DNA of 64,000 bases from Anaerolineae bacterium (lineage in GTDB: Bacteria; Chloroflexota; Anaerolineae; B4-G1; DUEL01): positions 18,608-82,607 of the forward strand of contig JAFGEI010000159.1 in assembly GCA_016931695.1 (NCBI GenBank), read 5' to 3'. Under the pieces are notes generated by a model. The model was not told the origin of the DNA. It saw nothing but the letters and a program-made list of their open reading frames with translations, and searched no databases. Of this stretch, positions 36,154 through 60,512 are shown piece after piece; position 1 is the stretch's first letter; every line of letters begins with the position of its first letter. The position numbers and the translations under genes are program-made.

Positions 36154-37305
36154 ATGCAGTATAAACTGTTTATCCCCGGCCCCTGCGAGGTCGACGAGGC
36201 CGTCTTGTCGGCGATGGCGCAACAGACCCGCCCGCATTATGGCGCCGAGTGGCTGGAGGTCCATCGGGAGGTATCGAGCCTCCTGCGGCAGATCTTTGAA
36301 ACTGAGAACGACATATTCTTGGTGCCGGGTGCTGGCTCAGCGCTGCTCGACATGGCCTTGGGCAGTATGCTGGCGACAGGGGAGACGGTTATCGTCGGGG
36401 ACAATGGTTTTTTCGGCTCTCGCTTGCAGGCGATGGCCAGGGGCTATGGGTTGCGGGTCGTTTCGTTGCTTGCGGAGCATGGCCATCCGCTCGATCCCGA
36501 CGACTTGCGGCGCTTGTTAGCCCGCGAGCCGGCGGCGCGGGCAGTCGCGGTGATTCACCACGAGACGGCGACGACGGTACTCAACCCCCTCCAGGAGCTG
36601 GCAGCCGTGACCCACGAAGCGGGGCTGCCCATCATTGTCGACGCGATCTCTTCCCTGGGCGGGGTCTCTCTCCCGGTGGATGCGTGGGGGATTGACGTCT
36701 GCGTCTCGGTCGCCAACAAGTGCCTGGAATGTCCGCCGGGAGTGGCCTTTATCTCGGTGGGGCCCCGTGCATGGGAGTGGGTGGACGGCCACGAGAACCA
36801 GCATCACGGCTGGTATCTGGACCTGCGGACTTGGCGCCAGTACGCGACCGAGTGGGCCGACTGGCACCCGTCCCCGGTCACGATGCCGACCAACAACATC
36901 TTGGGGCTGCGCGTCAGCCTGCGCAACATCGTCGGCAAGGGGCTGGAGAATCACTTTGCCCACTTTCGGCAGGCGGCTCACGCGGTGCGGCAGGGGCTGG
37001 GGGCGATGGGTTTTGCGCAGATGGTCGCCGAGCCGTACGCTTCCCCCATCGCCACGGCGTTCAAGGCCCGGCCCGAGTTTGCGGTCAAGGAGCTGATCGA
37101 CTACCTGGCTCAATCGCAGGGGATACTGGTTTCCGGCGGGCTGGGCCCGCTGGCGGGCAGGGTCTTTCGCGTCGGGCACATGGGCAAGGCGGCGACGCCG
37201 CCCTACATCAAAGAGTTCTTGTCCGCTGTCGCCTTGTTTATGCGCCAACGCGGCTTCGAGTTCTCGGAGGCGGATGTCTACTCCGGCCTGGTGGAGAAGG
37301 TATGA
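36154..37305 (+). CDS. class V pyridoxal-phosphate aminotransferase (serine-pyruvate/alanine-glyoxylate type)
   Basis: LFIPGPCEV N-terminus, DAISSLGG, and a 'SVANKCL' PLP-Lys region. 383 aa. The stop overlaps the hdrA ATG (ATGA). Confidence 0.75.
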   Translation: MQYKLFIPGPCEVDEAVLSAMAQQTRPHYGAEWLEVHREVSSLLRQIFETENDIFLVPGAGSALLDMALGSMLATGETVIVGDNGFFGSRLQAMARGYGLRVVSLLAEHGHPLDPDDLRRLLAREPAARAVAVIHHETATTVLNPLQELAAVTHEAGLPIIVDAISSLGGVSLPVDAWGIDVCVSVANKCLECPPGVAFISVGPRAWEWVDGHENQHHGWYLDLRTWRQYATEWADWHPSPVTMPTNNILGLRVSLRNIVGKGLENHFAHFRQAAHAVRQGLGAMGFAQMVAEPYASPIATAFKARPEFAVKELIDYLAQSQGILVSGGLGPLAGRVFRVGHMGKAATPPYIKEFLSAVALFMRQRGFEFSEADVYSGLVEKV

Positions 37306-39026: not shown

Positions 39027-39051
39027 CCCGGCCTGCTTGCCTGGCCGGGTC
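39025..39051 (+). terminator. stem-loop immediately after the hdrA stop
   Basis: GACCCGGCC - 9-nt loop - GGCCGGGTC. Only a weak U-tract follows (GTTATG). Confidence 0.3.
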
Positions 39052-39092: not shown

Positions 39093-39665
39093 ATGGCGGA
39101 TGTTTGGGATCAAATCGCGCGCTATCGCAAGGTAAAAGTTTTGGCTGATGGTTCTCGCCTGCTGCTGCGACCGCTGCAGGAGGCGGACGAAGAAGCCCTG
39201 GTCGAGCTGTTTGCCCGCGCGTCGCGTGAGGATATCGAGTGGTTCCGCAGCGATGCGGCCGACCCCAATGTCGTGCGGCGATGGGTCGACCATCTCGATT
39301 ATCGGCGCGTTTTCCCCTTGATCGCCTTGGTTGGCGACCAGTTGGTGGGTGATGCGACGCTCCATTTTGGTGAGCACTATCACCGCCACCTGGCGTGGGT
39401 GCGCATCTTTTTGGACAAGCAGTACCGGCGGCAGGGAATTGGCACGTTGATGATGCACAGCATGATCGAAATTTCCCAGTTGATCGGCCTGCAGCAGTTG
39501 TACGGTGAGGTGGTCATCAACCAGGCGCACGTCATCCGCGGCTTTCAGGATATGGGCTTTCGACACGAGGTGACCCTGCAGGATTATTTTATCACCAGCA
39601 AGGGCGATCTGTTGGACATGGCGATCCTGGTGCTGCGGATGGTCGATCACACAGGGCAGTTTTAG
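39093..39665 (+). CDS. GNAT-family N-acetyltransferase
   Basis: Acetyl-CoA-binding motif QYRRQGIGTLMM and LRPLQEADEEALVELF N-terminal pattern. 190 aa. Confidence 0.75.
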   Translation: MADVWDQIARYRKVKVLADGSRLLLRPLQEADEEALVELFARASREDIEWFRSDAADPNVVRRWVDHLDYRRVFPLIALVGDQLVGDATLHFGEHYHRHLAWVRIFLDKQYRRQGIGTLMMHSMIEISQLIGLQQLYGEVVINQAHVIRGFQDMGFRHEVTLQDYFITSKGDLLDMAILVLRMVDHTGQF

Positions 39666-39682
39666 GCTGCCAGGAGGTGTCA

Positions 39683-40258
39683 ATGGGTGCGAGCCGGGAC
39701 CTGTCGTTCGCCGAGATGGTTCAGGAACAGAGTGGGGAGCCGGTCCAGCGCTGCTACTTTTGCCAAAAGTGTACCGCTGGCTGCCCGGTCGCCTACGCGA
39801 TGGACGTGAAACCGGCCCAGCTTTTGCGCTTGATTCAACTGGGAGAGAAGGAGGCGGTGCTGGGCAGTTCCGCCATTTGGCTTTGTGTGAACTGCCAAAC
39901 GTGCGGGGCGCGCTGTCCCAACCAGATTTACCTGGCGGGGATGTATGACGCCCTGCGGCAAATGGCGCTGGGCGAGGGATATGCGCCGGAGCCTTCTGTC
40001 TATGCCCTTCACCGCTCGTTCCTCGACAGCATCAAGATGTGGGGCCGCGTGCACGAGTTGACAATGTTGATGGAGTACAAGATGCGCTTGTTGCCCAAGC
40101 CAGCTATCTTTTTTGACGGGCTGGTTTCGGACTTGATGATGGGCGGGGGCCTGATTGCCAAGGGCAAGATATCGTTCGTTCCGGAACGGGTCAAGCGCCT
40201 GAAGGAAGTACGCCGGCTTTACGAGACGAATAGTCCTGGCACGGAGGTGGAGCCGTGA
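39683..40258 (+). CDS. hdrC: heterodisulfide reductase subunit C-like
   Basis: CYFCQKCTAGCPV and CVNCQTCGARCPN. ATG 39683 lies 5 nt after CAGGAGG. Confidence 0.8.
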   Translation: MGASRDLSFAEMVQEQSGEPVQRCYFCQKCTAGCPVAYAMDVKPAQLLRLIQLGEKEAVLGSSAIWLCVNCQTCGARCPNQIYLAGMYDALRQMALGEGYAPEPSVYALHRSFLDSIKMWGRVHELTMLMEYKMRLLPKPAIFFDGLVSDLMMGGGLIAKGKISFVPERVKRLKEVRRLYETNSPGTEVEP

Positions 40259-41097
40259 AGTACGCCTACTATCCTGGTTGCACCATCGAGACCACGGCGG
40301 TCGAGTTCGGCCGTTCCACCAATGCGGTCTGCGAGGCGTTGGGCATCGAATTGGTCGAGATCGAGGACTGGAACTGCTGCGGCGCGTCTTCGGCACACAG
40401 TCTCGACCACGAACTCTCCCTGCGCCTCCCGGCGCGGAACGTTGTCCTGGCCCAAGAGATCGGGGGCGACATTGTTGCCCCGTGCCCGGCCTGCTACCAA
40501 AACGTCCTCGCCGCCGACAACCGTCTGCGGGAGGACGAGGCCTGGCGGCGGCAGATGGAAGAGGTCGTTGGGGCAGCCTACACCGGGCAGGGACGCCCGC
40601 GCCACTTGTTGGAAGTGCTCAGCGAGCCTGAGGCCTTGGCTGCGGTCCGCGCCCGGGTCAAGCGCCCCTTGGCAGGGCTCAAGGTTGCTTCTTACTATGG
40701 CTGCGTGCTTGTCCGCCCGCCAGAGATCACCGGGTGGGACGACCCGGAGCACCCAGTGCGGATGGACGTACTGATGGCTGCCCTGGGGGCCGAAGCGGTC
40801 GATTGGTCTTATAAGGTTGACTGCTGCGGCGCCAGCCTGACCTTGAGCCGCAGTGAAATCGTCGTTCACCTGTCTACCCGCCTGGCCGAAGCGGCGGTGG
40901 AGGCGGGGGCGGACGTGGTTGCTGCGGCCTGTGGCATCTGCCAGATCAATCTCGACACGCGCCAGAAGCATATTCCTGCTCTCTATTTTACCGAGTTGAT
41001 GGCCCTCGCCTTTGACTTGCCCAACCTGGATCGATTGTTCAAGAAACACGGGGTCGATCCCCGCCCGGTGCTGCGGCGGCGCGGGTTGTTTGCGTAG
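40255..41097 (+). CDS. hdrB: heterodisulfide reductase subunit B-like
   Basis: YYPGCT...DWNCCGASS and SYYGCVLVRP...KVDCCGASL CCG motifs. The GTG start overlaps the hdrC TGA. Confidence 0.8.
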   Translation: MKYAYYPGCTIETTAVEFGRSTNAVCEALGIELVEIEDWNCCGASSAHSLDHELSLRLPARNVVLAQEIGGDIVAPCPACYQNVLAADNRLREDEAWRRQMEEVVGAAYTGQGRPRHLLEVLSEPEALAAVRARVKRPLAGLKVASYYGCVLVRPPEITGWDDPEHPVRMDVLMAALGAEAVDWSYKVDCCGASLTLSRSEIVVHLSTRLAEAAVEAGADVVAAACGICQINLDTRQKHIPALYFTELMALAFDLPNLDRLFKKHGVDPRPVLRRRGLFA

Positions 41098-41105
41098 GGG
41101 GATGT

Positions 41106-44100
41106 ATGACAAACGAGAAGCAAGTCTCTGAGCAAAACAAGGCGGTCCTGGTTGTCGGCGCGGGTATCAGCGGCATGCAGTCGGCGCTGCTGCTGGCGGA
41201 AGCCGGCTATCCTGTCCATTTGCTGGACGCAGCCCCGGCGATTGGCGGTGCCTTTCACCTGCTGGACCGCACCTTCCCTACCGACTCGTGTGGCATCTGT
41301 CACATGCTGCCGGGACGGGCGGCCTACTGCCCGACCATTGAGTGCGACTTGCACCCCAACATCGACATCCTGCCCTATGCCGAGGTGATTGGCCTGGAAG
41401 GAGAACCGGGCGCCTTTACCGTGCGGGTGCGGCACAAGCCGCGCTATGTCTCGGTCGAGCGCTGTATCGACTGCGCCCGCTGCGCCGGGGTCTGCCCGGA
41501 GGAGCGCTCCAGCCAGTACGAGGGCACGCTGCACATGGAGCGGGCAATTTACCGCCCGCCGCTGCGGGGGGTGCCGGGCACCTATGTGATCGACATGGAT
41601 GTCTGCACTCGCTGCGGCAAGTGCATTGAGGTTTGCCCCACCGATGCCATCGACCTGGACATGGCGCCTGTCGAGAGCACGCTGCAGGTGGGGGCGGTGA
41701 TCCTCAGCCCCGGCTTTGAGCCCTTTGACGCCCGGCTCAAGGGCGAGTTCGGGTTTGGTCACTATGACAATGTCCTCTCCAGCGTCCAGCTCGAGCGCAT
41801 GATCAGCTTTGCCGGCTCCACCAGCGCCCACGTCCTGCGCCCGTCCGACGGCGCTACGCCCCGCCGCGTCGCTTTTATCCACTGCGTCGGCTCGCGGGAC
41901 GTGTCAATTGGTAAGGGCTACTGCTCTTCCGTCTGCTGCATGTACGCTGCCAAGCAGGTCAAGGTGCTCAAGAGCCTGGAGCCGGATGTCGACGTGACGG
42001 TCTTTTTTATGGACATCCGCGCGCACGGCAAGGATTTTGACGCCTACTTTGACCAGGTCGAGGCGCTGCCGGGGGTGACCTATCGCCGCAGCATGGTCTC
42101 GGCGGTTCACCAACTCCAGCAAAGCCGCAATCTCTTGTTGACCTATGTGGCGGAGGACGGCAGCCCGGTCGAGGCAGAGTTCGACATGGTCGTGCTGGTG
42201 GTTGGATTTGGCGCACCGGAAGGCGTCCAGGCGCTGGGCGAGACGCTGGGCGTCGCGCTGAACGAGTACGGATTTGGCCGGACAGGGTACTTTGCGCCCG
42301 ACCGCAGCTCGCGCCCCGGCATCTTTTTGGCCGGTTCGTTCCGCGAGCCGAAGGACATTCCCGAGACGGTGGTGGAAGCTTCGGCGGTGGCGGGCAGCGC
42401 AGCCCGCCTGTTGAACGGCGGGTCGCAGTCCCCCCTGGCCTCGCCGGAGGCGGAGGAGCGCGACGTGTCGGAGGAATGGCCGCGGGTCGGCGTCTTTATC
42501 GGCGACTGCGCCGGCACCCTGGCCGAAACGGTCGATCTGGAGGCGGTGGCAGCGCACGCCCGGGGGCTGCGCCACGTCGCCCTGGCGCAGATCGTCGCTG
42601 ACGGGTTTGCTGCCGCCGGGCTGGCTGCCGTTGCCCGGACAGTGCAGGAGGAAAAGATCAACCGCGTCGTCGTCGCTGGACCGGTGGACCTGCGCCTGTC
42701 GGACGCTTTGCGGGCCATGATGGCCGAGGCTGCCCTCAACGCCAACCTGCTGGAGGTCGTGAATTTGGGCGGCGAGGTTGCCTGGCCCCACGCCGGCAAC
42801 GGTGCCGCGACGACCAAGGCCATGCGCCTGGTCGAAATGGCGGTGGCGGGCGCGATCTACCGCCAGCCCTTCCGCCCGCCGGCAGAACCGTTGGACCAGC
42901 GCGTGCTGGTGATCGGCGGTGGGCTGGCAGGGATGACCGCTGCCCTGGCCGCGGCCGAGATGGGCCACCCGGTCGACCTGGTGGAGCGCGATGATGTTCT
43001 TGGTGGACAGCTGCGTCACCTGCGCTTTGTGCTGGGCGGCAGCGATCCCCAGGCGGCGTTGACGGCGCTGCTGGAGCAGGTGCGGGATCAGCCTCGCATC
43101 CGTGTCCGGTTGCAGACCGCGGTGCAGGGGGTGACGGGACGGCTGGGCCAGTTCCAGGCTGCGCTGGCCCCCGTCGACGGCGAGCCGGAAGAAGAGACCT
43201 ACGGCGCGGTGATTGTCGCCACTGGCGGGCGGGAGGTTACGCCGGCCGAGTACCTGTACGGCCAGGACGAGCGGGTGCTCACCCAGCGCGAGCTGGAACA
43301 GCGGATGGCGGACTTGGATCCTCAGTCCATCGTCATGATCCAATGCGTCGGCTCCCGCGAGCCGGAGCGGCCCTATTGCAGCCGCATCTGCTGTACCAAG
43401 GCGGTGACCAACGCGCTGGCGGTCAAGGAGCGCAATCCCGCGGCCCGCGTCTATGTGCTGTACCGCGAGATTCGCACGTACGGGTTCCGCGAGGATGCCT
43501 ACCGCCAGGCGCGGGAAAAGGGCGTGATCTTTATGCGCTACGACCTCGATCACAAGCCGGAGGTCGAGGCGCTGGAAGAAGGCCTGCGGGTCCGGCTGGT
43601 CGAACCGATCAGCGGCCGCAAAGTGACCTTGCTAAGCGATCTCGTCGTGCTCAGCAATGGCATCGCGGCCAACGACAACCGGGCCCTGGCCGAGAGCATG
43701 GGGTTGGAGCTGGACGACTATGGCTTTTTCCGCGAGGAGCATGTCAAGATGCGCCCGCTCGACCTGGGCCAGCGCGGCATCTTTGTCGCCGGCCTGGCCC
43801 ACTCGCCGCGGGCAGCAGACGAGACCATCGCCATGGCCCAGGGCGCGGCGATGCGGGCGGTATGCCTGCTGGCGCCCGCCCGCGTCGAGGCGCAGCGGAC
43901 CGTGGCGCGGGTCAACCCTCGCCTCTGCTCCACCTGCGGTCTCTGCGTCGAGGCCTGCCCCTACGGGGCGCGCCGCTTGGGCCCCGATGACGCTTACGCC
44001 GAGGTCCTGGAGACGGTCTGCCAGGGCTGTGGGGTCTGCCTGATGGTCTGCCCTAACGGCGCTACCGAGCAGGTGGGCTTTGCCATGCGCCGGGTGTATG

Positions 44101-44126: not shown

Positions 44127-44135
44127 GAGGCGCGC

Positions 44136-45452: not shown

Positions 45453-45480
45453 CGCGGAACCGCCATCCACAGGAGGCGAA

Positions 45481-46626
45481 ATGCAGGATATTCAGCAGTT
45501 TGCGAACGAGATCGGCCTTGATCTGGACCTGTTGGCCTGTATCCAGTGTGGCAAGTGCAGCGGTGGCTGTCCGGTTTCCATCACCACTGCCCTCAACATT
45601 CGCTTTCTCGTCTACGAGAGCCTGTTGGATGCGCTGCCGGAACTGGTGCACATGGAGGAGTTGTGGGATTGCACCTGCTGCTTTACCTGCGTCGAGCGCT
45701 GTCCCAAGGACGTGCGCCCGGCAGAGCTGATCATTACCCTGCGCAACCAGTTGGTCGAGAGCGGCAAGATTCCGGGCACGATTGGCGAGGCGCTGATGGG
45801 TATTTTCCGCCAGGGCAATCCGCTGGGGCTTGCGCGCGAAGATCGGGCGCTGTGGGCGGAGGGGCTCGACGTCAAGCCGGCGCGGGAAGGCTGCGACACG
45901 CTGCTGTTCACCTGCTGTTACTCGGCCTACGACGTCCAGTCCCAGCCAGCGACAAAGGCCCTGGTGCGCATCCTCCACGCCGCAGGGGTCGACCTGGGCT
46001 ACCTGGGCACGGAGGAGACGTGCTGTGGCAACGAAGTGAAGCGGGTCGGGGAAAAAGCCATGTTCGACGAAATGCTGGTCGAGGAGGGGAAGGCGCTCTT
46101 GGAGAGCGTCGGCGCCCGCTGTATCGTGACCACTTCTCCCCACTGCTACAATACCTTCAAGAACGAGTATGGCCTGGAAGGAATCGAGGTGCTGCACTAT
46201 ACCCAGGTCCTCGCCCGGCTGCTGGAGGAAGGCCAGTTAAAGCTTTCCGTGCCGGTGGAGAAAACTGTCACCTATCACGATCCCTGCTTCCTGGGCAAGC
46301 AGAACAAGGTCTTTGACGAACCGCGGGCAGTGCTGCGGGCGATCCCAGGGCTGAATTTCGTCGAGATGGACCGCATCCGCGAGCGCAGTCTCTGCTGCGA
46401 GGGAGGCGGCGGGCGGATGTGGTTCGAGGGCACAAACACCGAGGATCGCCTGGCATTCCAGCGGGTGCAGGAGGCGGTCGACACGGGGGCCGAGGTCCTT
46501 GCAGTCGCCTGTCCGTTCTGCCTGGCCATGCTCGCCGACGCGGCGAAGGTGAAGGGGCTGGAGGAGCAGCTCAAGGTGATGGACATTTCCGAGCTGGTGG
46601 TGCAGGCATTGGGAGATGGCGGGTAG
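45481..46626 (+). CDS. HdrD-like Fe-S protein (HdrC-type ferredoxin fused to two CCG domains)
   Basis: CIQCGKCSGGCPV, CTCCFTCVERCPKDV, then CCG motifs (FTCCYSAY, ETCCGNE, YHDPCFLGK, SLCCEGGGG). ATG 45481 follows ACAGGAGG. Confidence 0.8.
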   Translation: MQDIQQFANEIGLDLDLLACIQCGKCSGGCPVSITTALNIRFLVYESLLDALPELVHMEELWDCTCCFTCVERCPKDVRPAELIITLRNQLVESGKIPGTIGEALMGIFRQGNPLGLAREDRALWAEGLDVKPAREGCDTLLFTCCYSAYDVQSQPATKALVRILHAAGVDLGYLGTEETCCGNEVKRVGEKAMFDEMLVEEGKALLESVGARCIVTTSPHCYNTFKNEYGLEGIEVLHYTQVLARLLEEGQLKLSVPVEKTVTYHDPCFLGKQNKVFDEPRAVLRAIPGLNFVEMDRIRERSLCCEGGGGRMWFEGTNTEDRLAFQRVQEAVDTGAEVLAVACPFCLAMLADAAKVKGLEEQLKVMDISELVVQALGDGG

Positions 46627-46634
46627 GGGAAAAG

Positions 46635-48335: not shown

Positions 48336-48380
48336 AATTTTCTCGGTATACTCGTGTAATTTGACGTGGAGGGAAACAGC

Positions 48381-48809
48381 ATGAGCGATGAGTCGTTCGA
48401 GCCCAAGATCGTTGCTTTCCTGTGCAACTGGTGCACCTATACCGGCGCTGACCTGGCTGGCACGTCGCGCATTCAGTATCCGCCCAACGTGCGGATCATC
48501 CGCCTGATGTGTTCGGGTTCGGTGGACCCCACCTACGTGCTCAAGGCGCTCCTGGATGGCGCGGACGGAGTGTTGATCGGCGGCTGTCACCCCGGTGACT
48601 GCCACTACCAGTCGGGCAACTACAAGGCCCGGCGGCGGATCATTGCCTTGAAAGAGATTGTCAAGCAGGCCGGGCTGGACGAGGAACGGGTCTGGCTGCG
48701 CTGGGTATCGGCCTCGGAGGGGCAGCGCTTTGCCGACGTGGTGACCCAGATGGTCGGGGCCTTGAAAGAGAAGGGCCCCAATCCGCTGCGGCAGGAGTGG
48801 GCGGTATAG
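48381..48809 (+). CDS. mvhD: MvhD-like [2Fe-2S] electron-transfer protein (copy 1, all-Cys)
   Basis: PKIVAFLCNWCTYTGADLAG, YPPNVRIIRLMCSGSVD, and DGVLIGGCHPGDCHY. Confidence 0.9.
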   Translation: MSDESFEPKIVAFLCNWCTYTGADLAGTSRIQYPPNVRIIRLMCSGSVDPTYVLKALLDGADGVLIGGCHPGDCHYQSGNYKARRRIIALKEIVKQAGLDEERVWLRWVSASEGQRFADVVTQMVGALKEKGPNPLRQEWAV

Positions 48810-48831
48810 CAAAACTCGCCGAGAGGGAGAT

Positions 48832-49950: not shown

Positions 49951-49958
49951 GAGGATGT

Positions 49959-50660
49959 ATGGCAACTGAAACTCGAGTCGCTGACAACAAGATGATCCCG
50001 ATCTATATCATGGGGAAGCAGTATCTCGTTCCCCCCGCACTGACGATCATGAAAGCGATGGAGTATGCCGGCTACAAGCTGATCCGGGGGGTGGGCTGCC
50101 GCGGCGGGTTCTGCGGCGCGTGCGGCACTGCGTATCGCATTCAGGGCGATCCCAAGCTCTACTTTGGCCTGGCCTGCCAGACGGTGGTGCAGCCGGGAAT
50201 GTACCTGGCCCAACTGCCGTTTTTCCCCGCCCGGCGCGAGACGTATGACATCAGCCAGCTGGAGCCGACGGCGACGACGTTGTTCAGCCTGTACCCCGAA
50301 GTCCTGCGCTGCCTGGGCTGTGGCGCCTGCACCAAGGCTTGCCCGCAGGAAATTGACGTGCGCGACTATATGGCCGCGGCGATGCGCGGCGACCTGGCCA
50401 AGCTGGCGGACACGTCGTTTGACTGCATTATGTGCGGCCTCTGCGCGGCGCGATGCCCGGCAGAGGAGGCGCAGTATAACATCGCCATCCTTGCCCGGCG
50501 CCTGTACGGCCGCTATCTTGCCCCCCGCTCCGAGCATCTGGAAAGGCGGCTGGAAGAGATCGAGACGGGCAAGTTTACGGTCGACCTGGAAGAGTTAAAG
50601 GGGTTGGGTGAAGAGGAACTCAAGGTGCGGTACAAGGCGCGGGACATTGAACCCAAGTGA
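49959..50660 (+). CDS. succinate dehydrogenase/fumarate reductase iron-sulfur subunit-like protein
   Basis: 2Fe-2S-type CRGGFCGACG, then CLGCGACTKACP and CIMCGLCAARCP. ATG 49959 follows TAGGAGGA. Confidence 0.6.
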   Translation: MATETRVADNKMIPIYIMGKQYLVPPALTIMKAMEYAGYKLIRGVGCRGGFCGACGTAYRIQGDPKLYFGLACQTVVQPGMYLAQLPFFPARRETYDISQLEPTATTLFSLYPEVLRCLGCGACTKACPQEIDVRDYMAAAMRGDLAKLADTSFDCIMCGLCAARCPAEEAQYNIAILARRLYGRYLAPRSEHLERRLEEIETGKFTVDLEELKGLGEEELKVRYKARDIEPK

Positions 50661-50673
50661 GAGGAGTGGTAGA

Positions 50674-52281
50674 ATGAGTGGCTATCCGCCTGAAATGCAA
50701 GAATCGATTCGCTCTGTCGAGGCCACCCGCGCCCGGCGAGTGGGCGAGACCTTTCCCGCCATGAGTATGGAACAGCGCGAGAAAATCCTCAGCGGCTTTC
50801 ACCCGGACTATCGGGAAGAAACCTTTCACGCCGTGCGCGTCGGTGTCAGCAAGGGGCAGCGCATGCCGGTTGAGCTGGCCCGCGTGGTGGAAGCGCGACC
50901 ACACGTTGGCGCGGATTTCGACCTGAGCGCTCCGGTTGCCGAGACGGACGTGTTGGTGATCGGCGGGGGCGGCGGCGGGGCCTCGGCTGCCCTCCTGGCC
51001 CAGGAGAGCGGGGCCAGGGTCATCTTGGTGACCAAGCTCCGCTTCGGCGATGCCAACACGGTGATGGCCCAAGGCGGCATCCAGGCTGCCGACCGGCCGG
51101 AAGACAGCCCGTCGATTCACTACCTGGACGTGATTGGGGGCGGGCACTTTACCAACGTCCCCGACCTGGTCGAAGCGCTGGTTACGGATGCGCCATGTGT
51201 CATCAAGTGGCTCGAGGACCTGGGTATGATGTTTGATAAAGAGCCCGATGGCACGATGATGGAAGAGCACGGCGGCGGCACCAGCCGCAAGCGGATGCAC
51301 TCGGCGCGGGATTATTCGGGGGCCGAGATCATGCGCACGCTGCGGGACGAGGTGCGCAACCGGGAAGAGCATATTGCCGTCGTCGAGTTCTCGCCTGCCG
51401 TGGAGCTGGTGCTGGACGACCAGGGCCGGATTGCCGGGGCAGTGGTGGTGAACCTAGAGACCGGCGTGTACGGTTACATCAAGGCCAAGGCGGTGGTTTT
51501 GGCCACCGGCGGCGGCGGCCGGCTGCATTATCAGGACTTTCCCACGACCAACCACTATGGCGCGACGGCTGACGGCGTGGTCCTGGCCTATCGCGTTGGC
51601 GCACCGTTGGGCTACCTGGAATCGATGCAGTACCATCCCACTGGCGCGGCTTTTCCGGAACAAATCTTGGGCCTGCTGGTCACGGAAAAGGTGCGCGGGT
51701 TGGGGGCTCAACCGGTCAACAAACGCGGCGAGCAATTTGTCTACCCCCTGGAGCCGCGCGACGTGGAGGCGGCGGCGCTGATCCGCGAGTGTTCGGAGCG
51801 CGGCAATGGCGTCGTGACCCTGACTGGCCAGCCTGGCGTGTGGCTTGATTCGCCAATGATCGACATGATTCACGGTCCCGGCACGATTCAGCGTGCTTTG
51901 CCGGCGATGGTGCGCCAGTTTGCCCGCTTTGACATCGACATTGCCCAGGAACCGATCTTGGTCTACCCCACGCTGCACTATCAGAACGGCGGCGTGCGGC
52001 TGAAGGCTGACGCCTCGACCGACATACCGGGCCTTTTTATTGCCGGCGAGGTGAGCGGCGGAGTTCACGGGCACAACCGGTTGATGGGCAACAGCTTGCT
52101 GGAGATCACTGTCTTTGGCCGGCGAGCGGGCCGTACCGCCGCTCACTATGCCGGGCAGGTGATGCTGGCCGCGCCGAACCTGGCGCACGTCGCAGCCTGG
52201 AACCGGGAGATGGAGGCGGCCGGAATCGACACCGACGTCATCTCCCCCATCCTGCTGCCTGATTACGTTCATCGGGAATAG
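50674..52281 (+). CDS. FAD-binding flavoprotein of the succinate dehydrogenase/fumarate reductase/L-aspartate oxidase family
   Basis: DVLVIGGGGGGASAALLA, NTVMAQGGIQAA (no His at the covalent-FAD position), MQYHPTG, TEKVRGLGA, and IPGLFIAGEVSGGVHGHNRL. About 90-aa N-terminal extension. Confidence 0.7.
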   Translation: MSGYPPEMQESIRSVEATRARRVGETFPAMSMEQREKILSGFHPDYREETFHAVRVGVSKGQRMPVELARVVEARPHVGADFDLSAPVAETDVLVIGGGGGGASAALLAQESGARVILVTKLRFGDANTVMAQGGIQAADRPEDSPSIHYLDVIGGGHFTNVPDLVEALVTDAPCVIKWLEDLGMMFDKEPDGTMMEEHGGGTSRKRMHSARDYSGAEIMRTLRDEVRNREEHIAVVEFSPAVELVLDDQGRIAGAVVVNLETGVYGYIKAKAVVLATGGGGRLHYQDFPTTNHYGATADGVVLAYRVGAPLGYLESMQYHPTGAAFPEQILGLLVTEKVRGLGAQPVNKRGEQFVYPLEPRDVEAAALIRECSERGNGVVTLTGQPGVWLDSPMIDMIHGPGTIQRALPAMVRQFARFDIDIAQEPILVYPTLHYQNGGVRLKADASTDIPGLFIAGEVSGGVHGHNRLMGNSLLEITVFGRRAGRTAAHYAGQVMLAAPNLAHVAAWNREMEAAGIDTDVISPILLPDYVHRE

Positions 52282-52379
52282 GGGGAAGAGCCGGCCCGGC
52301 TAGCTGAAAGATGCGAGATCTGCCGCATTAACTGTACCCAAAAACGGGTATGGTGCTTGAGGAAATAGCGAGGGATTTT

Positions 52380-55300: not shown

Positions 55301-55508
55301 GCGCACCTGTCCCTTTGAGATTCCCAAGGTGCGGTATTCGGACGTGGGAGTGGGCAAGATCAAGGGCGCGGCCTACATCGAGCCGGCCTTGTGCCAGGGC
55401 TGCGGGACGTGCGTGGCCGAGTGCCCGGCCAAGGCGATCCAGTTGGCGACGTATCGCGACGAGCAGATTATGGCCCAGCCGCTGGGGAGTTGGGTAAAAG
55501 ATGCGTGA
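52380..55508 (+). CDS. double-module HdrA-like flavoprotein (~1042-1052 aa)
   Basis: VLVVGGGVGGMRAAM and ALVIGGGVSGMTAAL FAD folds. AWLQCIGSRD..YCSSICCMY and VFIQCVRPPSEVEYCSRICC. Central RIGVFLCRCRPTLDG. C-terminal CVGCLTCVRTCPF / CQGCGTCVAECPA. The start is either 52380 (AGGGA upstream) or 52350. Confidence 0.8.
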   Translation: MPFGTRQDSVGNVLVVGGGVGGMRAAMDLAEAGLKVYLIENLPWLGGRVAQLGYMFPTHDCVLCRGSSDHGYGCTRPAISPAFLDFNRHPNIEIMANTDLIKAEGQAGDFTVTVRHRPTHVDNARCINCSLCTAVCPVDLPSPFEAGLAARKAVYKMAPRALPDSYVVDKVPRCDTCRRCESICPTGAIDLDEEPYEVDLSVGAIILSVGYTLSDPGEYEELGYGRYPNVIHSMQYERLVSRSGPTEGVVLRPSDGKLPKRIAWLQCIGSRDEKYPYCSSICCMYSTKEAILAKERIEGVHCQVFIMDERAFNKEFNAYYEQARTHYEVEYTRCRIQQVLQDPKTHDLILRYPDEGGVVKEERFDIVVLSVGSRPPSTAEELAQVLGIELNPYGFCETDPFAPLQTSEPGIYVCGTFSSPKEIAETILDAAGAAGDVMRLMRRHLGAAPSSREHPFLWQPNGMVPERDVSGEPLRIGVFLCRCRPTLDGIVQVDELDRFAQGLEDVVHVQPLDYGCFEAGLEAIRTAIEDLRLNRVVIGACSHRTHEPLFQRTVREAALNPYLLEMVNLREQCAWVHVGDPDRATRKAQEMIRMAVARVRVAQPVHKLAVQTEPSALVIGGGVSGMTAALSIADAGYNVFLVERDAELGGNLRHVYYTASGQNPQRLLRDLVNRVIGHERVQVFTRTKVVSHDGYVGAFRSLLRRQPRDNQDPVEVEISHAVTVVATGGQEWRGDVYLLGQDPRVVTTLELEDTIAHRPEQIVGMKQAVFIQCVRPPSEVEYCSRICCTNTIKNAIRIKMLNPDCQVVVLYKDIITYGFREAYYTEARRRGVLFMRYDDEHLPGIRQEDGQLRLVAWDAVLGQDVLFQPDLVVLSMAIEPSAGIEELAQVLGVPLSVEGFFMEAHLKMRPMDFVKEGLFFCGIAHYPKFLDECITNAQATAGRALTILTKDRLYVGGVVAEVDQSLCVGCLTCVRTCPFEIPKVRYSDVGVGKIKGAAYIEPALCQGCGTCVAECPAKAIQLATYRDEQIMAQPLGSWVKDA

Positions 55509-55968
55509 GGAGGGGAGCTTGACTGACGCAGGAAATAACGGCCAGGGGGAATTTGAGCCCGAGATCACGGCATTTACCTGTATCTACTGTGGCTACATGG
55601 CAGCAGATACCGCCGGCGCGCTGCGGCTCAAGTATCCGCCCAACGTGAAACTGGTACGCATGCCGTGCACTGGCAAGGTCGATGTGCGTTACATCTTGCA
55701 GGCCTTTGAACAGGGCGCGGACGGCGTCTATATCGTCGCTTGCCCAATTGGCAACTGTCACCATATTCATGGCAATGAGCGTGCAGTGGCGCGCGTCAAG
55801 TACACCAAAAGGCTCCTGGACGAGGTGGGGGTTGGAGGGGATCGGCTAGAGATTCTCTTTGCTTCGGGTGGAATGGGGGCGACCTTTGCTGAATCCGCTC
55901 ACGCGATGGTGGAGCGGGTCAAGCAGATAGGGCCGAATCCATTGAAGCTGGCGCCCGGAGCCGGGTAA
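55501..55968 (+). CDS. mvhD: MvhD-like protein (copy 2, all-Cys)
   Basis: PEITAFTCIYCGYMAADTAG, YPPNVKLVRMPCTGKVD, and DGVYIVACPIGNCHH. The start overlaps the upstream stop by 8 nt. Confidence 0.85.
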   Translation: MREEGSLTDAGNNGQGEFEPEITAFTCIYCGYMAADTAGALRLKYPPNVKLVRMPCTGKVDVRYILQAFEQGADGVYIVACPIGNCHHIHGNERAVARVKYTKRLLDEVGVGGDRLEILFASGGMGATFAESAHAMVERVKQIGPNPLKLAPGAG

Positions 55969-56006
55969 CTGGACGCTTCTGACTGGCCAGGAGGCTGGGG
56001 GGGGGT

Positions 56007-59000
56007 ATGAGAGACGACGTGACTCAGCAAGAAAAAGTTGTCGGTGCTGCGATGGTCGTCGGCGGCGGAATCGCCGGCATTCAGGCGTCCCTCGACCTGG
56101 CCGAGGCGGGCTTCAAGGTCTACCTGGTGGAGCTTCAGTCGGCGATTGGCGGCCACATGGCGCAGTTGGACAAGACCTTCCCCACCAACGATTGCTCGAT
56201 GTGCATCATCAGCCCCAAGCTGGTCGAGACGGGGCGCCATCGCAATGTCGAGCTGCTGGTTGACAGCGAGGTCATTGGCGTGCGGGGAGAAGCGGGGAAT
56301 TTTTCCGTTCGCCTGCGCACCAGGCCCCGCTACATCGACCTGGACAGGTGCACCGGCTGCGGCGAGTGCGCCGAGGCTTGCCCGGTAGTGATTCCAAACT
56401 ATTTTGACCAGGGGTTGGCAGACCAGCGCGCGGTGTACAAGCTCTACCCCCAGGCGGTTCCAAATGCCTACGCTATCGAAAAACTCGGCATCGCTCCTTG
56501 CCGCGATGCCTGCCCAACCGGCCAGCGCGTACAGGGTTATATCGCATTGATCCGCGAAGGACGGTATCACGATGCACTGCGCGTGATCAAGGAGGATAAT
56601 CCGTTTCCCGGTATCTGTGGACGAATCTGTAACCACCGCTGTGAGGATGCTTGCAACCGGCGCAAACTCGACGAGGCAATCAACATCCGCGCCCTGAAGC
56701 GGTTTGTCACCGACACGGTCTATGCCGAACCGCGAATGCCCCCGCAGCCGGCGGAGCGAAAATATGCCGAGCGCGTAGCCGTGATCGGCGCGGGCCCCTG
56801 TGGACTGACTGCCGCTCAAGACTTGTGTCAGCTGGGTTATGGGGTCGCTGTTTTTGAAGCGCTCCCCGTGGCTGGTGGAATGTTGCGGGTGGGTGTGCCC
56901 GAGTATCGCCTGCCAGCCTCGATTGTCGACCGGGAAGTGCAGGATATTGTCGATCTGGGGGTCGAGCTGCGGCTGAATACTTTTGTCGATAACCTGGACG
57001 ACATCTTTGACGAGGGCTTTCATGCGGTCTTGATTGCAGTTGGTGCGCACGAGGGAATTCGACCGCCTATTCCAGGGGCAGATTTAAATGGCGTTTTGAT
57101 TAACACCACCTTTTTGCGTGACGTCCGCCTGGGGAACCTGCCGTCTTTGGGCGAACGGGTGGCCGTCGTTGGGGCGGGGGACGTTGCGATGGACGTGGCG
57201 CGCACGGCTGTGCGCATGGGGGCGGAGGTTCACGTCTATTATCGCCGCACTCGCGGGGAGGCGACGGCGGGCGCGGAAGAACTGCGGCACGCAGAAGAGG
57301 AAGGCGTCAACTTTCATTTCCAGACCACTCCAATCGAGATTGTCGGCGACGAGGAGAGGTGTGTGGTGGGGATGAAGTGTGTTCGTACTGAGCAGGGGCT
57401 TGTTGACGAAACAGGCCGGAGTCGGCCTGTACAGCTGCCTGGCTCGGAGCATTTTGTTCCTTGTGACACGGTGATCTTTTCTATCGGTCAACGGGCTGGC
57501 CTGGCTTTTATCCCCGAAAGCGCCGGCGTCGGCATCACCGGCCAAGCCACGATTGCGGTCAATCCCAACACCCTGGCGGCAACCCGTTCGGGGGTCTTTG
57601 CCGCTGGAGACGCCACTACCGGTACTTCTTTTGTCATCGAAGCTGTGGCGGCGGGACATCGGGCGGCCGAGTCGATCGATCGCTATTTGCAGGGAAAAGA
57701 GATGGAGCCGCCGCCCAAGCCCCAGCTGCCGGTCGTAGAGTTGAATCGCCTCGAAATTGAGGAGCGAGTAAAGAGCGGCCAGGTTTGTGTTCAACCCCGC
57801 GTGCCAATGGACGAACTGCCGGTCGATCAGCGCTCGCAAACCTTTGAGGAAGTAGTTGCCGGTTACACTCACGAGCAGGCGCAGGCCGAGGCGGCGCGCT
57901 GCCTGGCGTGCGGCATCTGTTCCGAGTGCCTGAGCTGCGTATATGCCTGCCAGGCCGAGGCAATCGATCACGACATGGTAGAGCAGGTGCAGGACTTGAA
58001 CGTCGGGGCAATCCTCCTCGCCCCGGGCTTTGCGCCCTACGACGCCGCCCGTTCGGAGGAGTATGGCTGGGGGCGCTATGCTAACGTCGTGACCTCCCTC
58101 CAGTTCGAGCGGCTGCTCAGCGCCTCCGGCCCAACCCACGGTCACGTCAGGCGCCCGTCCGATGGGGCGACGCCGCGGCGAATTGCCTTTCTCCAGTGCG
58201 TCGGCTCGCGGGATCAAGAACACAATTATTGCTCCTCCGTCTGTTGCATGTACGCGACCAAGGAGGCGATCCTGGCCTGCGAGCACGAGCCGGATACCCG
58301 TATCTCGGTCTTTATGATGGACATGCGCTCCTTCAGCAAGGGCTATGAAGAATACTACCGCCGCGCGCGAGAGCGGTACGGCGTTCGCTACATTCGCTCG
58401 CGCGTCTCGGCGATCGTGGAGGACCCCCAGAGCAGGGATCTGCGGATTCGCTATGTCGACGAGGAGAACGCCGCCGCGCCGATCGTCGAAGAGACCTTTG
58501 ACATGGTCGTGCTGGCGGTGGGGATGGAGATTCCGGAGGCCGTGCGCGACCTGGGCCGCCGGTTGGGAATCGAGCTGGACGGCAATGGCTTTTGCCGCAC
58601 CTTGCCCTTCGCCCCGCTGCAGACCAGCCGCCCCGGCATATATGCGCTGGGCCCCTTCCGCGAGCCGAAGGATATCCCCGAATCGGTCGTGGAGGCAAGC
58701 GGGGCGGCGGGCGTGGCGGGCGCGTTGTTGGCGCCCGCCCGCTGGACGCTGGCCGATGTGCCACCCGACATTCCCGAGCGGGACGTGACGGGGGAGGAGC
58801 CGCGCATCGGCGTCTTTGTCTGTCACTGCGGTTCCAACATTGCCGGCGCGTTGGATGTACCCAAGGTGGCCGAGTACGCCGCCACACTGCCAGGAGTTGT
58901 GCATGCCGAGAGCAATCTCTACACCTGCTCCCAGGATACGGTTGCCCACATCACCGAGGTGACGCGGGAGCAGGGCCTCAACCGCGTCGTCGTCGCTTCT

Positions 59001-60512
59001 TGCAGTCCCTTGACCCACGAACCACTTTTCCAGGACGCCATCCGCGAAGCAGGATTGAACCCCAACTTGTTCGAGATGGCCAACATCCGCAATCAATGCT
59101 CCTGGGTCCATCCCGATAACTGGGATGTTGCCACTGAGAAAGCGCAGGACCTGGTGCGCATGGCCGTGGCCAAGGCGGCGCAGCTGGAACCGCTGTACAA
59201 GACGACAGTAAAGGTCGAAAAAGCAGCGCTGATCGTTGGCGGCGGCGCTGCGGGGATGACCGCCGCGCTGACGCTGGCGCAGCAGGGCTTTCCCGTCCAT
59301 CTGGTCGAGCGGGAGAATCGCTTGGGTGGCAACTTGCTGCAGCTGCGCCATTATCTCCAGGAAGCGACGGGCGAGGGAGAGCGAATCTGGCTCGATCCCC
59401 AGGCCTATGCCCAAGAGTTGGTGCGGCAGGTCGAAGCGGAACCGCTGGTTACGGTCCACCTGAATACCCATCTGGTGGATACCGGCGGCTTTTTGGGCCA
59501 CTTTACCTCGCGTCTCCAGGGCCCCGATGGGGAACTGGAAATTTCCCACGGCGCGGCGATCATCGCCACCGGCGGGCAGGAGTATCGCGGCCCCGAGTAT
59601 GGCTATGGCAGCGATTCGCGCATCGTCACCCAACAAGAGTTCGAGCATCTGTTGAGCGCGAGGCAGGACTTGCCCGACTCGGTGGCGATGATCCAGTGTG
59701 TGGGACCGGCGGAAGCGTTTTGTTCCCGCATCTGTTGTACCACGGCGCTCAAAAACGCACTGATGCTCAAGCGGCACAAGCCGGAGGCGCAGGTGGTTGT
59801 CCTCTACCGGGACGTGCGCACCTTTGGTTTCAAGGAGCGGGTCTACCAGGAGGCGCGGCGGGCTGGGGTGTTGTTCGTCCGCTTCGAGTTTGACCGCAAG
59901 CCCGAGGTGCAAATTGGCGACGACGGGCTGCGAGTCGCGGTCTGGGAGCACAGCCTGGGACAAGAAGTCATTCTGCGGCCCGACATGCTCGTCTTGAGCA
60001 TGCCGGTGGTGCCTTCCGAAGGAGCGCAGGAATTGGCAAGCCGGCTCAGGATTCCGGTCGACCTGGACGGCTTTTTCCTCGAGGCCCACGTCAAGCTGCG
60101 ACCGGTCGATTTCTCTTCCGACGGCTTTTTCCTGGCTGGCATGGCTCACTATCCCAAGTTTCTCGACGAAGCGGTAGCCCAGGCCCAGGCGGCTGCGGCC
60201 CGCGCGGCGACGATCTTGAGCCGGGATGAGCTGGAGGTCGGCGGCATTGTCGCCCAGGTCGATGAGGAGAGATGCGTCGGCTGCCTGACCTGTGTGCGTA
60301 TTTGCCCCTACCACGCGCCCCGGGTCCAGGCCGACTTGCCGGGAGTGGGGTCGATTATGGGTGCGGCCTACATCGAGCCGGCCCAGTGTCACGGCTGTGG
60401 CATCTGTGTCGCAGAGTGTCCGGCCAAGGCAATCCAGCTGCTCCATTACCGGAGCGAGCAGATGGAGGCCAAGATCGCCGCGCTGATGCTGCCATCGCCG
60501 ATCTGTAGTTGA
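56007..60512 (+). CDS. giant HdrA-GltD-HdrA fusion flavoprotein (HdrL-type, 1501 aa)
   Basis: HdrA FAD module (AMVVGGGIAGIQASL). Inserted NADPH-dependent glutamate-synthase small-subunit-like unit (CRDACPTGQRVQGYI..EDNPFPGICGRICNHRCEDAC, VAVIGAGPCGLTAA, VAVVGAGDVAMD). AFLQCVGSRD..YCSSVCCMY. Second N-domain RIGVFVCHCGSNIAGALD and second FAD module ALIVGGGAAGMTAAL. C-terminal CVGCLTCVRICPY / CHGCGICVAECPA. Confidence 0.85.
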   Translation: MRDDVTQQEKVVGAAMVVGGGIAGIQASLDLAEAGFKVYLVELQSAIGGHMAQLDKTFPTNDCSMCIISPKLVETGRHRNVELLVDSEVIGVRGEAGNFSVRLRTRPRYIDLDRCTGCGECAEACPVVIPNYFDQGLADQRAVYKLYPQAVPNAYAIEKLGIAPCRDACPTGQRVQGYIALIREGRYHDALRVIKEDNPFPGICGRICNHRCEDACNRRKLDEAINIRALKRFVTDTVYAEPRMPPQPAERKYAERVAVIGAGPCGLTAAQDLCQLGYGVAVFEALPVAGGMLRVGVPEYRLPASIVDREVQDIVDLGVELRLNTFVDNLDDIFDEGFHAVLIAVGAHEGIRPPIPGADLNGVLINTTFLRDVRLGNLPSLGERVAVVGAGDVAMDVARTAVRMGAEVHVYYRRTRGEATAGAEELRHAEEEGVNFHFQTTPIEIVGDEERCVVGMKCVRTEQGLVDETGRSRPVQLPGSEHFVPCDTVIFSIGQRAGLAFIPESAGVGITGQATIAVNPNTLAATRSGVFAAGDATTGTSFVIEAVAAGHRAAESIDRYLQGKEMEPPPKPQLPVVELNRLEIEERVKSGQVCVQPRVPMDELPVDQRSQTFEEVVAGYTHEQAQAEAARCLACGICSECLSCVYACQAEAIDHDMVEQVQDLNVGAILLAPGFAPYDAARSEEYGWGRYANVVTSLQFERLLSASGPTHGHVRRPSDGATPRRIAFLQCVGSRDQEHNYCSSVCCMYATKEAILACEHEPDTRISVFMMDMRSFSKGYEEYYRRARERYGVRYIRSRVSAIVEDPQSRDLRIRYVDEENAAAPIVEETFDMVVLAVGMEIPEAVRDLGRRLGIELDGNGFCRTLPFAPLQTSRPGIYALGPFREPKDIPESVVEASGAAGVAGALLAPARWTLADVPPDIPERDVTGEEPRIGVFVCHCGSNIAGALDVPKVAEYAATLPGVVHAESNLYTCSQDTVAHITEVTREQGLNRVVVASCSPLTHEPLFQDAIREAGLNPNLFEMANIRNQCSWVHPDNWDVATEKAQDLVRMAVAKAAQLEPLYKTTVKVEKAALIVGGGAAGMTAALTLAQQGFPVHLVERENRLGGNLLQLRHYLQEATGEGERIWLDPQAYAQELVRQVEAEPLVTVHLNTHLVDTGGFLGHFTSRLQGPDGELEISHGAAIIATGGQEYRGPEYGYGSDSRIVTQQEFEHLLSARQDLPDSVAMIQCVGPAEAFCSRICCTTALKNALMLKRHKPEAQVVVLYRDVRTFGFKERVYQEARRAGVLFVRFEFDRKPEVQIGDDGLRVAVWEHSLGQEVILRPDMLVLSMPVVPSEGAQELASRLRIPVDLDGFFLEAHVKLRPVDFSSDGFFLAGMAHYPKFLDEAVAQAQAAAARAATILSRDELEVGGIVAQVDEERCVGCLTCVRICPYHAPRVQADLPGVGSIMGAAYIEPAQCHGCGICVAECPAKAIQLLHYRSEQMEAKIAALMLPSPICS

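Follow-up and report, generated by a model that had tools for sequence, protein, structure and literature searches.

HdrA proteins in which two incomplete modules complement each other, one keeping Cys197 and the other the N-terminal domain, have been described in tandem and in fused form, including that of Moorella, in Chadwick 2022 (PMC9012536), which also describes the insertion of NfnB. Moorella HdrA holds two flavin adenine dinucleotides (FAD), as stated in Buckel & Thauer 2018 (PMC5861303), and the preprint 10.64898/2026.04.10.717634 on class II benzoyl-CoA reductase describes BamE as a fused HdrA dimer in which one FAD bifurcates and the other is structural, and which is served by the MvhD-like adaptor BamF. 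The adaptor role of MvhD is established for Fdh, Elp and BamF, and hdrABC-mvhD-metVF clusters are reported from marine Anaerolineae in Sewell 2017 (PMC5736913). Complementary tandem and fused HdrAs, NfnB insertion, HdrL, the MvhD connector and hdr-mvhD-metVF clusters are therefore already in print. Here we analysed six HdrA-family genes located at 37302-60512 of a stretch of 64,000 nucleotides (the window), which corresponds to positions 18608-82607 of contig C208 of an Anaerolineae metagenome-assembled genome (MAG), G000 (3.87 Mb in 236 contigs, 93% complete, 4.3% estimated contamination; GC of the window ∼63%). What the window adds is five putative asymmetric cores in one Wood-Ljungdahl (WL) operon, evidence for their repeated origin, a candidate partner gene on another contig and a conserved gene set for FdhB-like, SdhAB-like and fused HdrA proteins.

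Two complementary types of HdrA module

The six genes encode nine TrxR-like FAD modules, three of the proteins (D1, D2 and HdrL) being two-module fusions and the other three (A1, A2 and S) single modules. All nine carry the GxGxxG motif and the four-cysteine cluster motif C..(G)..C-x3-CC, and thus combine the TrxR-like FAD domain with the four-cysteine [4Fe-4S] site (C386, C399, C403 and C404 in 5ODC numbering) that defines the HdrA superfamily. PDB phmmer searches matched 5odc_A with E values of 1.5e-169 for D2 and 4.9e-189 for HdrL. In D2, aa 23-403 align with residues 146-515 of 5ODC HdrA, aa 483-654 with its N-terminal domain (residues 3-174) and aa 867-1045 with residues 474-647; in all three fusions the stretch between the modules is a copy of the HdrA N-terminal domain (N-domain). 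HdrA or HdrA2 was the nearest NCBIfam model for all six proteins, with 0/6 over the curated cut-off (best 948.5 bits vs 1100), and no module of the window (0/9) combines the N-terminal cluster domain, Cys197, the inserted ferredoxin and the C-terminal ferredoxin, all of which a canonical symmetric HdrA has on each polypeptide. An earlier reading of this DNA, made from the letters and their open reading frames (the sequence-only reading), had counted the same six genes, about nine modules and three fusions, had taken the modules for genuine HdrA and the linkers for N-domain copies, and had quoted from the linkers the strings CHCG, FLCRCRP and FIGDCAG. All of this agrees with our results, including the cysteine signature in 9/9 modules, except for one length, given as ∼1045 aa, which is 1052 aa.

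Domain content was compared in an alignment of 16 modules, namely the nine of the window and seven further HdrA modules of the same genome, with Cys197 located by counting in the printed 5ODC alignment as the second Cys of FPTNDCSIC. Thirteen of them are of two types. Type I modules (S, D1-N, D2-N, HdrL-N and, on other contigs, C155a, C155b and C95) have the Cys194/197 motif and an inserted 2x[4Fe-4S] ferredoxin domain and lack both the N-domain and a ferredoxin domain at the C-terminus, whereas type II modules (A1, A2, D1-C, D2-C, HdrL-C and C155_II) have the latter two and lack the former two. The Cys197 motif was found in 7/7 type I and 0/6 type II modules, and the N-domain with the C-terminal ferredoxin domain in 6/6 type II and 0/7 type I modules. 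The complementarity of asymmetric HdrA is thus present in S/A2, D1, D2 and HdrL within the window, and in A1 when it is taken with the C95 gene. The sequence-only reading missed these two types. Its two 'canonical' HdrAs, at 37302 and 46635, have neither the inserted ferredoxin nor the Cys197 motif and belong to type II, and its 'FAD-only' HdrA at 44136 is S, which carries three clusters (the inserted 2x[4Fe-4S] ferredoxin and the TrxR cluster) plus Cys197. The three truly canonical HdrAs of the genome lie outside the window, two on C168 and one, fused to MvhD, on C110; each has one in-frame TGA exactly at position 197 (DCSIU or DCSAU), where 7/7 type I modules have Cys.

The five cysteines of the N-domain are all kept in A1, A2, HdrL-C and D2-C, the last with CRC for CHC. 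D1-C has lost four of the five and has Thr at the position of the FAD-N5 lysine of module 2; its N-domain is the most diverged, with 27-36% identity to the others and a very long branch. A search with D1 gave only close Chloroflexi homologues, 7923 of 8000 scored candidates having E <= 1e-20, and the cysteines were counted in the best 120. Of these, 86 have CCCC, with Cys at each of the first four N-domain positions, and 30 keep at most one of the four, all 30 falling among the 34 closest, while Cys194/197 and both TrxR motifs are kept in 120/120. This census indicates that the 'states of decay' ascribed to the linkers by the sequence-only reading are real solely for a D1 sub-lineage; D2 keeps 5/5.

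BamE, Moorella and anaerobic methanotrophic archaeal (ANME) HdrAs were compared through their published descriptions only. As the preprint describes it from cryo-EM of the Geobacter metallireducens enzyme, BamE combines on one chain the two TrxR-FAD modules of a fused HdrA dimer, module 1 has a Cys pair close to its N-terminus (Cys59-Cys62; Cys71/74 in D2), an inserted ferredoxin serves as low-potential exit and a C-terminal ferredoxin is present, all as in the fusions studied here; its partners BamF (MvhD-like, with selenocysteine, Sec) and BamD (an HdrBC fusion) parallel the Sec-containing MvhD3 and HdrCB2 that accompany HdrL. According to the same source, Lys280 of BamE parallels the N5 lysine and its second FAD has Gln at that position, whereas D2-C and HdrL-C keep Lys and D1-C has lost it; the partners also differ, being MetVF, an NfnB-like insert and FdhB-/SdhAB-like proteins instead of BamBC or BamGHI. 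HdrA3/4, 5/6 and 12/13 of ANME and the MetFV-HdrABC-MvhD of Moorella thermoacetica, as described, share with our modules the separation of Cys197 from the N-domain and C-terminal ferredoxin, two FAD per fused HdrA, and association with MvhD, HdrBC or HdrD, and MetFV. In contrast to ANME HdrA3/4, whose N-domain module comes first and Cys197 module second, the modules have the reverse order here, as they do in no fewer than 92 of the 150 best cluster representatives of the fused form; in addition, the present host belongs to a bacterial phylum, Chloroflexota, and its five putative cores lie in a single operon.

HdrL resembles its namesake in Desulfobacterium autotrophicum HRM2 (Strittmatter 2009, PMC2702500), a fusion of HdrA with a glutamate-synthase small subunit that has an NAD(P)H site and is followed by an MvhD gene. 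From their descriptions, the NfnB-inserted HdrA9-11 of ANME-1 and HRM2 HdrL also have the insert inside the ferredoxin domain and selenoproteins in the same system. Here, by contrast, Sec is found in MvhD and not in HdrL, the gene stands beside metVF and not dsr or fdh, and a full type II module follows the one with the insert. Canonical methanogen HdrA (5ODC, 7BKB, 8RVU), with its Mvh, Fdh or Elp arms, has the same four domain types and cluster ligands, an MvhD/ElpC connector and FdhB/ElpB-like subunits that can feed electrons without FdhA, but there the dimer is symmetric, with all four domains in each protomer.

Proposed pairing of the modules and proposed mechanism

The complex of S with A2 (aa 8-566) was modelled from alignments containing the window protein and 11 orthologues for each chain. 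The pair reached an ipSAE of 0.92 (0.93, 0.92 and 0.92 in the runs), compared with 0.00 for the best of three controls; in the calibration of this score, the mark was reached by 116/157 solved complexes and 2/215 mismatched pairs. The runs shared at least 88% of contacts and the partner pLDDT was 91. A2 residues 17-20, 47-56, 75 and 79-80, which include the N-domain Cys motifs, face residues 55-66 of S, the DC56SSC59 loop, and in the model this interface is the geometry of the composite N-domain/Cys197' cluster. The model supports a fit at the level of the fold, not binding. In a Foldseek comparison of D2 with the PDB, the matches were single HdrA chains (8rvy_A, E 5e-42), and a fused-HdrA entry was not among them.

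We consider it probable that the window encodes five asymmetric HdrA-type flavin-based bifurcation cores, each consisting of one I+II pair, and not nine equivalent HdrAs. Domain and cysteine content, conservation and phylogeny are observed and the S-A2 interface is modelled; the bifurcating FAD, the substrates and the direction of flow are what we infer. In the proposed mechanism, modelled on Chadwick 2022 and on the BamE structure, one pair would rebuild exactly one of the two electron paths of the canonical HdrA homodimer. The type I module would supply Cys197 in the Cys194/197 loop, the inserted ferredoxin as exit for low-potential electrons and, probably, the bifurcating FAD; in BamE this FAD is located in the first module, the one bearing the Cys pair. 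From this FAD, the high-potential electron would leave through the TrxR cluster to HdrBC, HdrD-like subunits or another acceptor arm, and the low-potential electron would pass through the composite N-domain cluster and the inserted ferredoxin to ferredoxin, which is needed by the CODH/ACS of the same operon. S+A2 and A1 with the C95 type I gene would be split pairs, and D1, D2 and HdrL pairs fused in the order I->II. With their neighbours, the predicted units would be HdrC1B1-A1 (unit 1), HdrC2B2-D1 (unit 2), S-HdrCB1-A2-MvhD1 (unit 3), FdhB-like + SdhAB-like-D2-MvhD2 (unit 4) and HdrL(NfnB-like)-MvhD3(Sec)-MetVF-HdrCB2 (unit 5), the last being a Moorella-type NAD(P)H-dependent methylene-tetrahydrofolate (methylene-THF) reductase that would co-reduce a low-potential carrier. 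In D1, with its N-domain cluster lost and Thr in place of the Lys of module 2, the low-potential branch would probably be absent, disabled or rerouted.

An unlikely alternative is that type I and type II modules are not paired one-to-one, but act as separate or homodimeric non-bifurcating FAD/Fe-S relays, similar to Qmo, that wire dehydrogenases to a common pool, the losses being mere streamlining. QmoA and QmoB are indeed HdrA-like. The genome has seven type I against six type II modules, with two type I beside one type II on C155; such uneven numbers, the location of A1 and its proposed partner on different contigs and the absence of a composite cluster from D1 would suit relays, whereas the losses are exactly complementary in 13/13 non-canonical modules, the order of the genes is always I then II, split or fused, and the modelled S-A2 interface brings together the very residues concerned. 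Besides, the composite cluster requires Cys197 in trans, as Chadwick 2022 (PMC9012536) has it, and in BamE, according to the preprint, the fused form works as one bifurcating unit.

Several points nevertheless weigh against five paired bifurcating cores. All pairing and function is read from genes and models and is purely predicted, and the genes were assigned to the five units by adjacency alone. Lys409 (our own count in the 5ODC alignment), which we take to be the marker of the bifurcating FAD, has an equivalent (CCxxxxK) in 7/7 type I modules but also in 5/6 type II modules, the exception being D1-C with Thr; since the Lys is kept in both types, sequence cannot by itself tell which FAD bifurcates. 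D1 retains Cys194/197 despite the loss of its N-domain ligands, which the model leaves unexplained. The score of S+A2 may stem from likeness to the solved HdrA homodimers (5ODC, 7BKB, 8RVU); close paralogues could score alike, and the partner of S could be another type II module. Finally, the AlphaFold2 prediction of D2 with 15 orthologues was mediocre (pLDDT 69.1, pTM 0.66).

Phylogeny, age and distribution of the putative pairs

Trees were built from the 16 aligned modules (IQ-TREE, LG+C20) and, after addition of 37 orthologues, from 53 rows. In the 16-row tree, C155_II, HdrL-C, D1-C and D2-C formed one clade (100/100) and C155a, C155b, HdrL-N, D1-N and D2-N another (100/99), both of which held at 100 in the 53-row tree. 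A1, of type II, and C95, of type I, were sisters at 100/100 with 52% identity, and again at 100 with 53 rows. A2 and S were sisters in the 16-row tree (89/93), and in the 53-row tree A2 joined the type II clade (87/92). A tree of the N-domain and C-terminal ferredoxin did not resolve, A1+A2 grouping at 82/88. Type II, a group defined by architecture before tree building, was monophyletic in 0/200 bootstrap trees, and the approximately unbiased (AU) test gave p=0.034 with a log-likelihood difference of 39.6. The sisterhood of A1 and C95 together with the AU rejection supports at least two independent origins of complementary pairs; S/A2 may represent a third.

Orthologues of A1 were found in 9/10 genomes of the same family (74-82% identical) and those of C95 in 10/10 (70-81%). 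In the sister family, G011 has one locus and G013 two at which a C95-type gene lies directly upstream of an A1-type gene, type I before type II. This adjacency and the sisterhood in the trees make the type I gene on C95 the most likely candidate for the missing partner of A1. A wider reading, which we advance tentatively and hold to be somewhat doubtful, is that the HdrA homodimer was split into a I/II pair repeatedly and independently within one lineage, and that the FdhB-like and SdhAB-like proteins, D2 and MvhD2 form an undescribed bifurcating enzyme. In it, D1, D2 and HdrL would hold an old clade pair in fused form, the A1/C95 pair would be younger and would have arisen separately, S/A2 would be a possible third origin, and the high-potential arm of the D2 unit would be a fumarate-reductase-like flavoprotein and not HdrBC. 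Neither 'convergent' nor 'gene duplication' occurs in the main text of Chadwick 2022 (PMC9012536), whose supplement, like that of the BamE preprint, may hold trees relevant to independent origins.

The sequence-only reading had seen in this region an extreme local amplification of HdrA with fusions of tandem copies, which in its explicit form would be a recent, lineage-specific amplification of one HdrA gene, with fusion of the tandem copies and an internal N-domain decaying as a useless linker. Nine modules on one strand within 23 kb, and a D1 N-domain that has lost 4/5 Cys and sits on a very long branch, give this account what appeal it has. However, the pairwise identity of the window modules is only 27-56% and that of the halves of each fusion 28-32% (323 core columns), the halves fall into two separate, deep clades at 100% support when the modules are treated separately, and the N-domain cysteines are kept in D2, HdrL and most of the D1 homologues counted above. 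Furthermore, many other Anaerolineae MAGs carry orthologues with 60-85% identity in the same order. Relatives of the 1052-aa D2 all belong to Chloroflexota MAGs labelled Anaerolineae, Thermoflexales or Anaerolineales, and in 61 related loci the identity of the best segment was mostly 59-80%, with one (L052) at 46%. Synteny was counted in the 22 longest of these loci. D2, MvhD and HdrL were adjacent in 20/22, the FdhB-like/SdhB-like/SdhA-like trio lay directly upstream of D2 in 16/22, and MetV-MetF followed HdrL-MvhD in 13/22, others ending at a contig edge. D1 was found upstream of S in 7/22, and an HdrL-like gene took that position in 3/22. Low identity of the modules together with conserved synteny indicates that the amplification is not recent, and we regard its having been so as highly improbable.

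The position of D1, upstream of S or of HdrCB-A2, is held by a second HdrL-like gene with an NfnB-type insert at L033:4-2463, L053:1-1665, L005:1-2640 and L070:5291-9715; these genes are 48-55% identical to HdrL.

That the locus was assembled or binned from collapsed or chimeric HdrA paralogues of several organisms is barely credible, because, for all the 236 contigs and 4.3% contamination of the MAG, the recurrent HdrA motifs and the many short cross-joined metagenome contigs, the same order of orthologues occurs on long contigs from MAGs that are independent, among them a complete chromosome record (L054), and stretches of the region are matched with 0 differences by contigs of metagenome run X1, a possible source of this DNA.

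The fused form was also searched among 1.84 billion cluster representatives (50% identity), of which 2337 proteins reached E <= 1e-30. The best 150 include 111 with a length of 900-1200 aa and 31 that exceed 1200 aa, the size of HdrL. By a strict regular expression, the Cys197 motif occurred solely near the N-terminus in at least 67/111 and at least 25/31 of these, and the reverse order was seen in 1/150. The fused I->II form is thus a large family. In two metatranscriptome runs searched with positions 41000-60960, we found only fragments of 45-100 nt at 90-95% likeness, from conserved motifs of other organisms.

Gene context, redox partners and significance

Pfam scans were performed on 43 chosen open reading frames (ORFs) of the window and strand-wise on other contigs. 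They showed one co-directional WL array of 33 genes and ∼45 kb at 19067-63938, which begins with DUF166, Fhs, AcsA, AcsB, AcsD, AcsC, RACo, a radical-SAM protein, CooC, AcsE and FolD and continues with the genes of the Table, from HdrC1 to HdrCB2, in the order listed. All intergenic gaps are below 100 nt, with the sole exception of the 448 nt between Fhs and AcsA. The HdrA-bearing part probably represents the redox half of a WL operon that is conserved in anaerobic Anaerolineae (Chloroflexota). The aminotransferase and the GNAT protein are embedded among the Hdr genes, and their role in a redox operon is unexplained. DUF166 proteins are encoded both at the head of the operon, before Fhs (19067-20188), and two genes downstream of the C95 type I HdrA (L065:9769-10620).

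Table. Genes of the redox part of the operon, with the canonical HdrA genes found elsewhere in the genome
Feature	Coordinates	Strand	Basis or remark
HdrC1 (34799-35209) and HdrB1 (35252-36121)	34799..36121	+	Pfam Fer4_8 / CCG
Class-V aminotransferase	36154..37305	+	Pfam Aminotran_5, NCBIfam; stop overlaps A1 start by 4 nt
A1, type II HdrA, 574 aa	37302..39026	+	N-domain, TrxR without Cys197 or inserted ferredoxin, C-terminal ferredoxin
GNAT acetyltransferase	39093..39665	+	Pfam
HdrC2 (39677-40258) and HdrB2 (40255-41097)	39677..41097	+	Pfam
D1, fused type I (aa 1-455) -> type II (aa 456-1006), 1006 aa	41106..44126	+	Domain scans, module alignment
S, type I HdrA, 438 aa	44136..45452	+	Cys56/Cys59 motif, inserted ferredoxin, no N-domain, no C-terminal ferredoxin
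HdrCB1, HdrC-HdrB fusion, HdrD-like	45481..46626	+	Pfam Fer4_8 + 2x CCG
A2, type II HdrA, 566 aa	46635..48335	+	Domain scans, module alignment
MvhD1	48366..48809	+	PF02662, 181.5 bits
FdhB/ElpB-like Fe-S protein, 372 aa	48832..49950	+	PDB phmmer; no Pfam match at 1e-5
SdhB/TfrB-like Fe-S protein (49959-50660) and SdhA/TfrA-like flavoprotein (50674-52281)	49959..52281	+	Pfam, NCBIfam
D2, fused type I (aa 1-478) -> type II (aa 479-1052), 1052 aa	52350..55508	+	All N-domain Cys kept
MvhD2	55501..55968	+	PF02662, 144.5 bits
HdrL, type I module (aa 1-925) with NfnB/GltD-like insert -> type II module (aa 926-1501), 1501 aa	56007..60512	+	Pfam, NCBIfam, PDB phmmer
MvhD3, predicted Sec	60534..60959	+	PF02662, 157.1 bits when TGA is read as a residue
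MetV (61043-61720) and MetF (61736-62719)	61043..62719	+	Pfam DUF5981 / MTHFR
HdrCB2, HdrD-like	62724..63938	+	Pfam
Canonical HdrA genes, C168 (two)	L062:8645-10642, 16768-18786	-	In-frame TGA
Canonical HdrA gene, C110	L063:7682-10321	-	In-frame TGA

HdrL is a fusion of HdrA with NfnB/GltD. Its insert of ∼470 aa, for which we set the boundaries at aa 161-632 (nt 56487-57902), is placed between the two cluster motifs of the inserted ferredoxin domain of the type I module. Pfam finds Fer4_20 there at aa 163-239 and Pyr_redox_2 at aa 256-550, the score with NCBIfam PRK12771 was 532.5 bits (cut-off 516), and NfnB of the PDB (4ylf_B) was matched at E 3.9e-86. MvhD3 starts 22 nt downstream. HdrL, MvhD3, MetV, MetF and HdrCB2 follow one another with no gap above 82 nt. 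The gene content of unit 5 matches the MetFV-HdrABC-MvhD methylene-THF reductase of Moorella, plus an explicit NAD(P)H module.

The three MvhD genes noticed by the sequence-only reading are present, all with scores over the PF02662 gathering score of 22.3. An in-frame TGA at 60738-60740 replaces in MvhD3 the first Cys of GCxxGxCH, at which MvhD1 and MvhD2 have Cys, and MvhD3 is likely a selenoprotein that ORF callers split. That MvhD acts as a generic adaptor, as had been proposed, fits its seven matches genome-wide, 0/7 of which lie beside an MvhAG-type hydrogenase; one adjoins a Sec-containing formate dehydrogenase (FDH) and one an FdhB-like protein. The absence of MvhA/G and of an FDH catalytic subunit from the window was likewise borne out, since NiFe large-subunit and molybdopterin families had no match on C208 and matched only on C216, C168 and C173. 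The sole [NiFe]-hydrogenase locus of the genome, on C216 (L066, C216:1-10000), encodes a HycI protease, the large and small subunits, an NAD/FAD-binding subunit and a Fer4_22 subunit, a set that indicates a group-3b-like and not an Mvh-type hydrogenase. Behind it lie genes for a CBS-domain protein, for an HdrCB-like protein and for a pyridine-nucleotide-disulfide oxidoreductase that has a dimerisation domain. A search of the genome for [FeFe] hydrogenase gave no match.

The genome encodes three molybdopterin enzymes, and each of their genes has an in-frame TGA. The one on C168 adjoins MvhD, a canonical Sec-containing HdrA and HdrBC, which is the Fdh-MvhD-HdrABC arrangement described for marine Chloroflexi in Sewell 2017 (PMC5736913). 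On the same contig, a set on the minus strand at ∼12218-16047 of L062 (C168:19000-38900), between two MvhD-HdrA sets, comprises a GcvH-like protein, an LplA/B-like lipoate ligase and an HdrCB-like protein. It bears some likeness to the sHdr systems of sulfur oxidisers, which are linked to lipoate-binding proteins. On the 6-kb contig C155 (L064), a pyruvate:ferredoxin-oxidoreductase gamma-like gene is accompanied by a tandem of type I HdrAs that share 65% identity, a single type II HdrA and MvhD, which gives a I:II ratio of 2:1.

The 372-aa protein upstream of the SdhAB-like pair is FdhB/ElpB-like and matched the PDB chains 9t1s_M (E 1.1e-23) and 8rvu_E (E 5.6e-19, aa 14-340), with an Atlas score of 0.97. 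In methanogens, ElpB and the MvhD homologue ElpC feed HdrA without FdhA. F420 is an unlikely donor of the FdhB-like arm, CofD and CofH not having been found in the 93%-complete genome, in which their absence is not proven. The sequence-only reading had left donors and acceptors open, which holds only in part: gene context points to NAD(P)H through the HdrL insert and to methylene-THF through MetVF as candidates, and further to an FdhB-like arm for input and to a flavoprotein of SdhAB-like type. We found no described counterpart in the literature of a unit that combines FdhB-like, SdhAB-like and fused HdrA proteins.

On this view of the modules, most 'HdrA' genes of WL-bearing Chloroflexi would be half-enzymes that have to be read in pairs, and Hdr copy counts in reconstructions from MAGs would change, with five cores here and not nine, or 'six HdrA'. 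The operon-linked bacterial set of split and fused forms would offer natural controls for the roles of the bifurcating FAD and of the N-domain cluster, D1 being without the cluster, and the acceptor of the Moorella-type methylene-THF reductase could be pursued at this locus. Three to five distinct bifurcation units would be tied to one carbon-fixation operon and, if the wider reading holds, a single-path asymmetric bifurcation core would have been repeatedly selected for.

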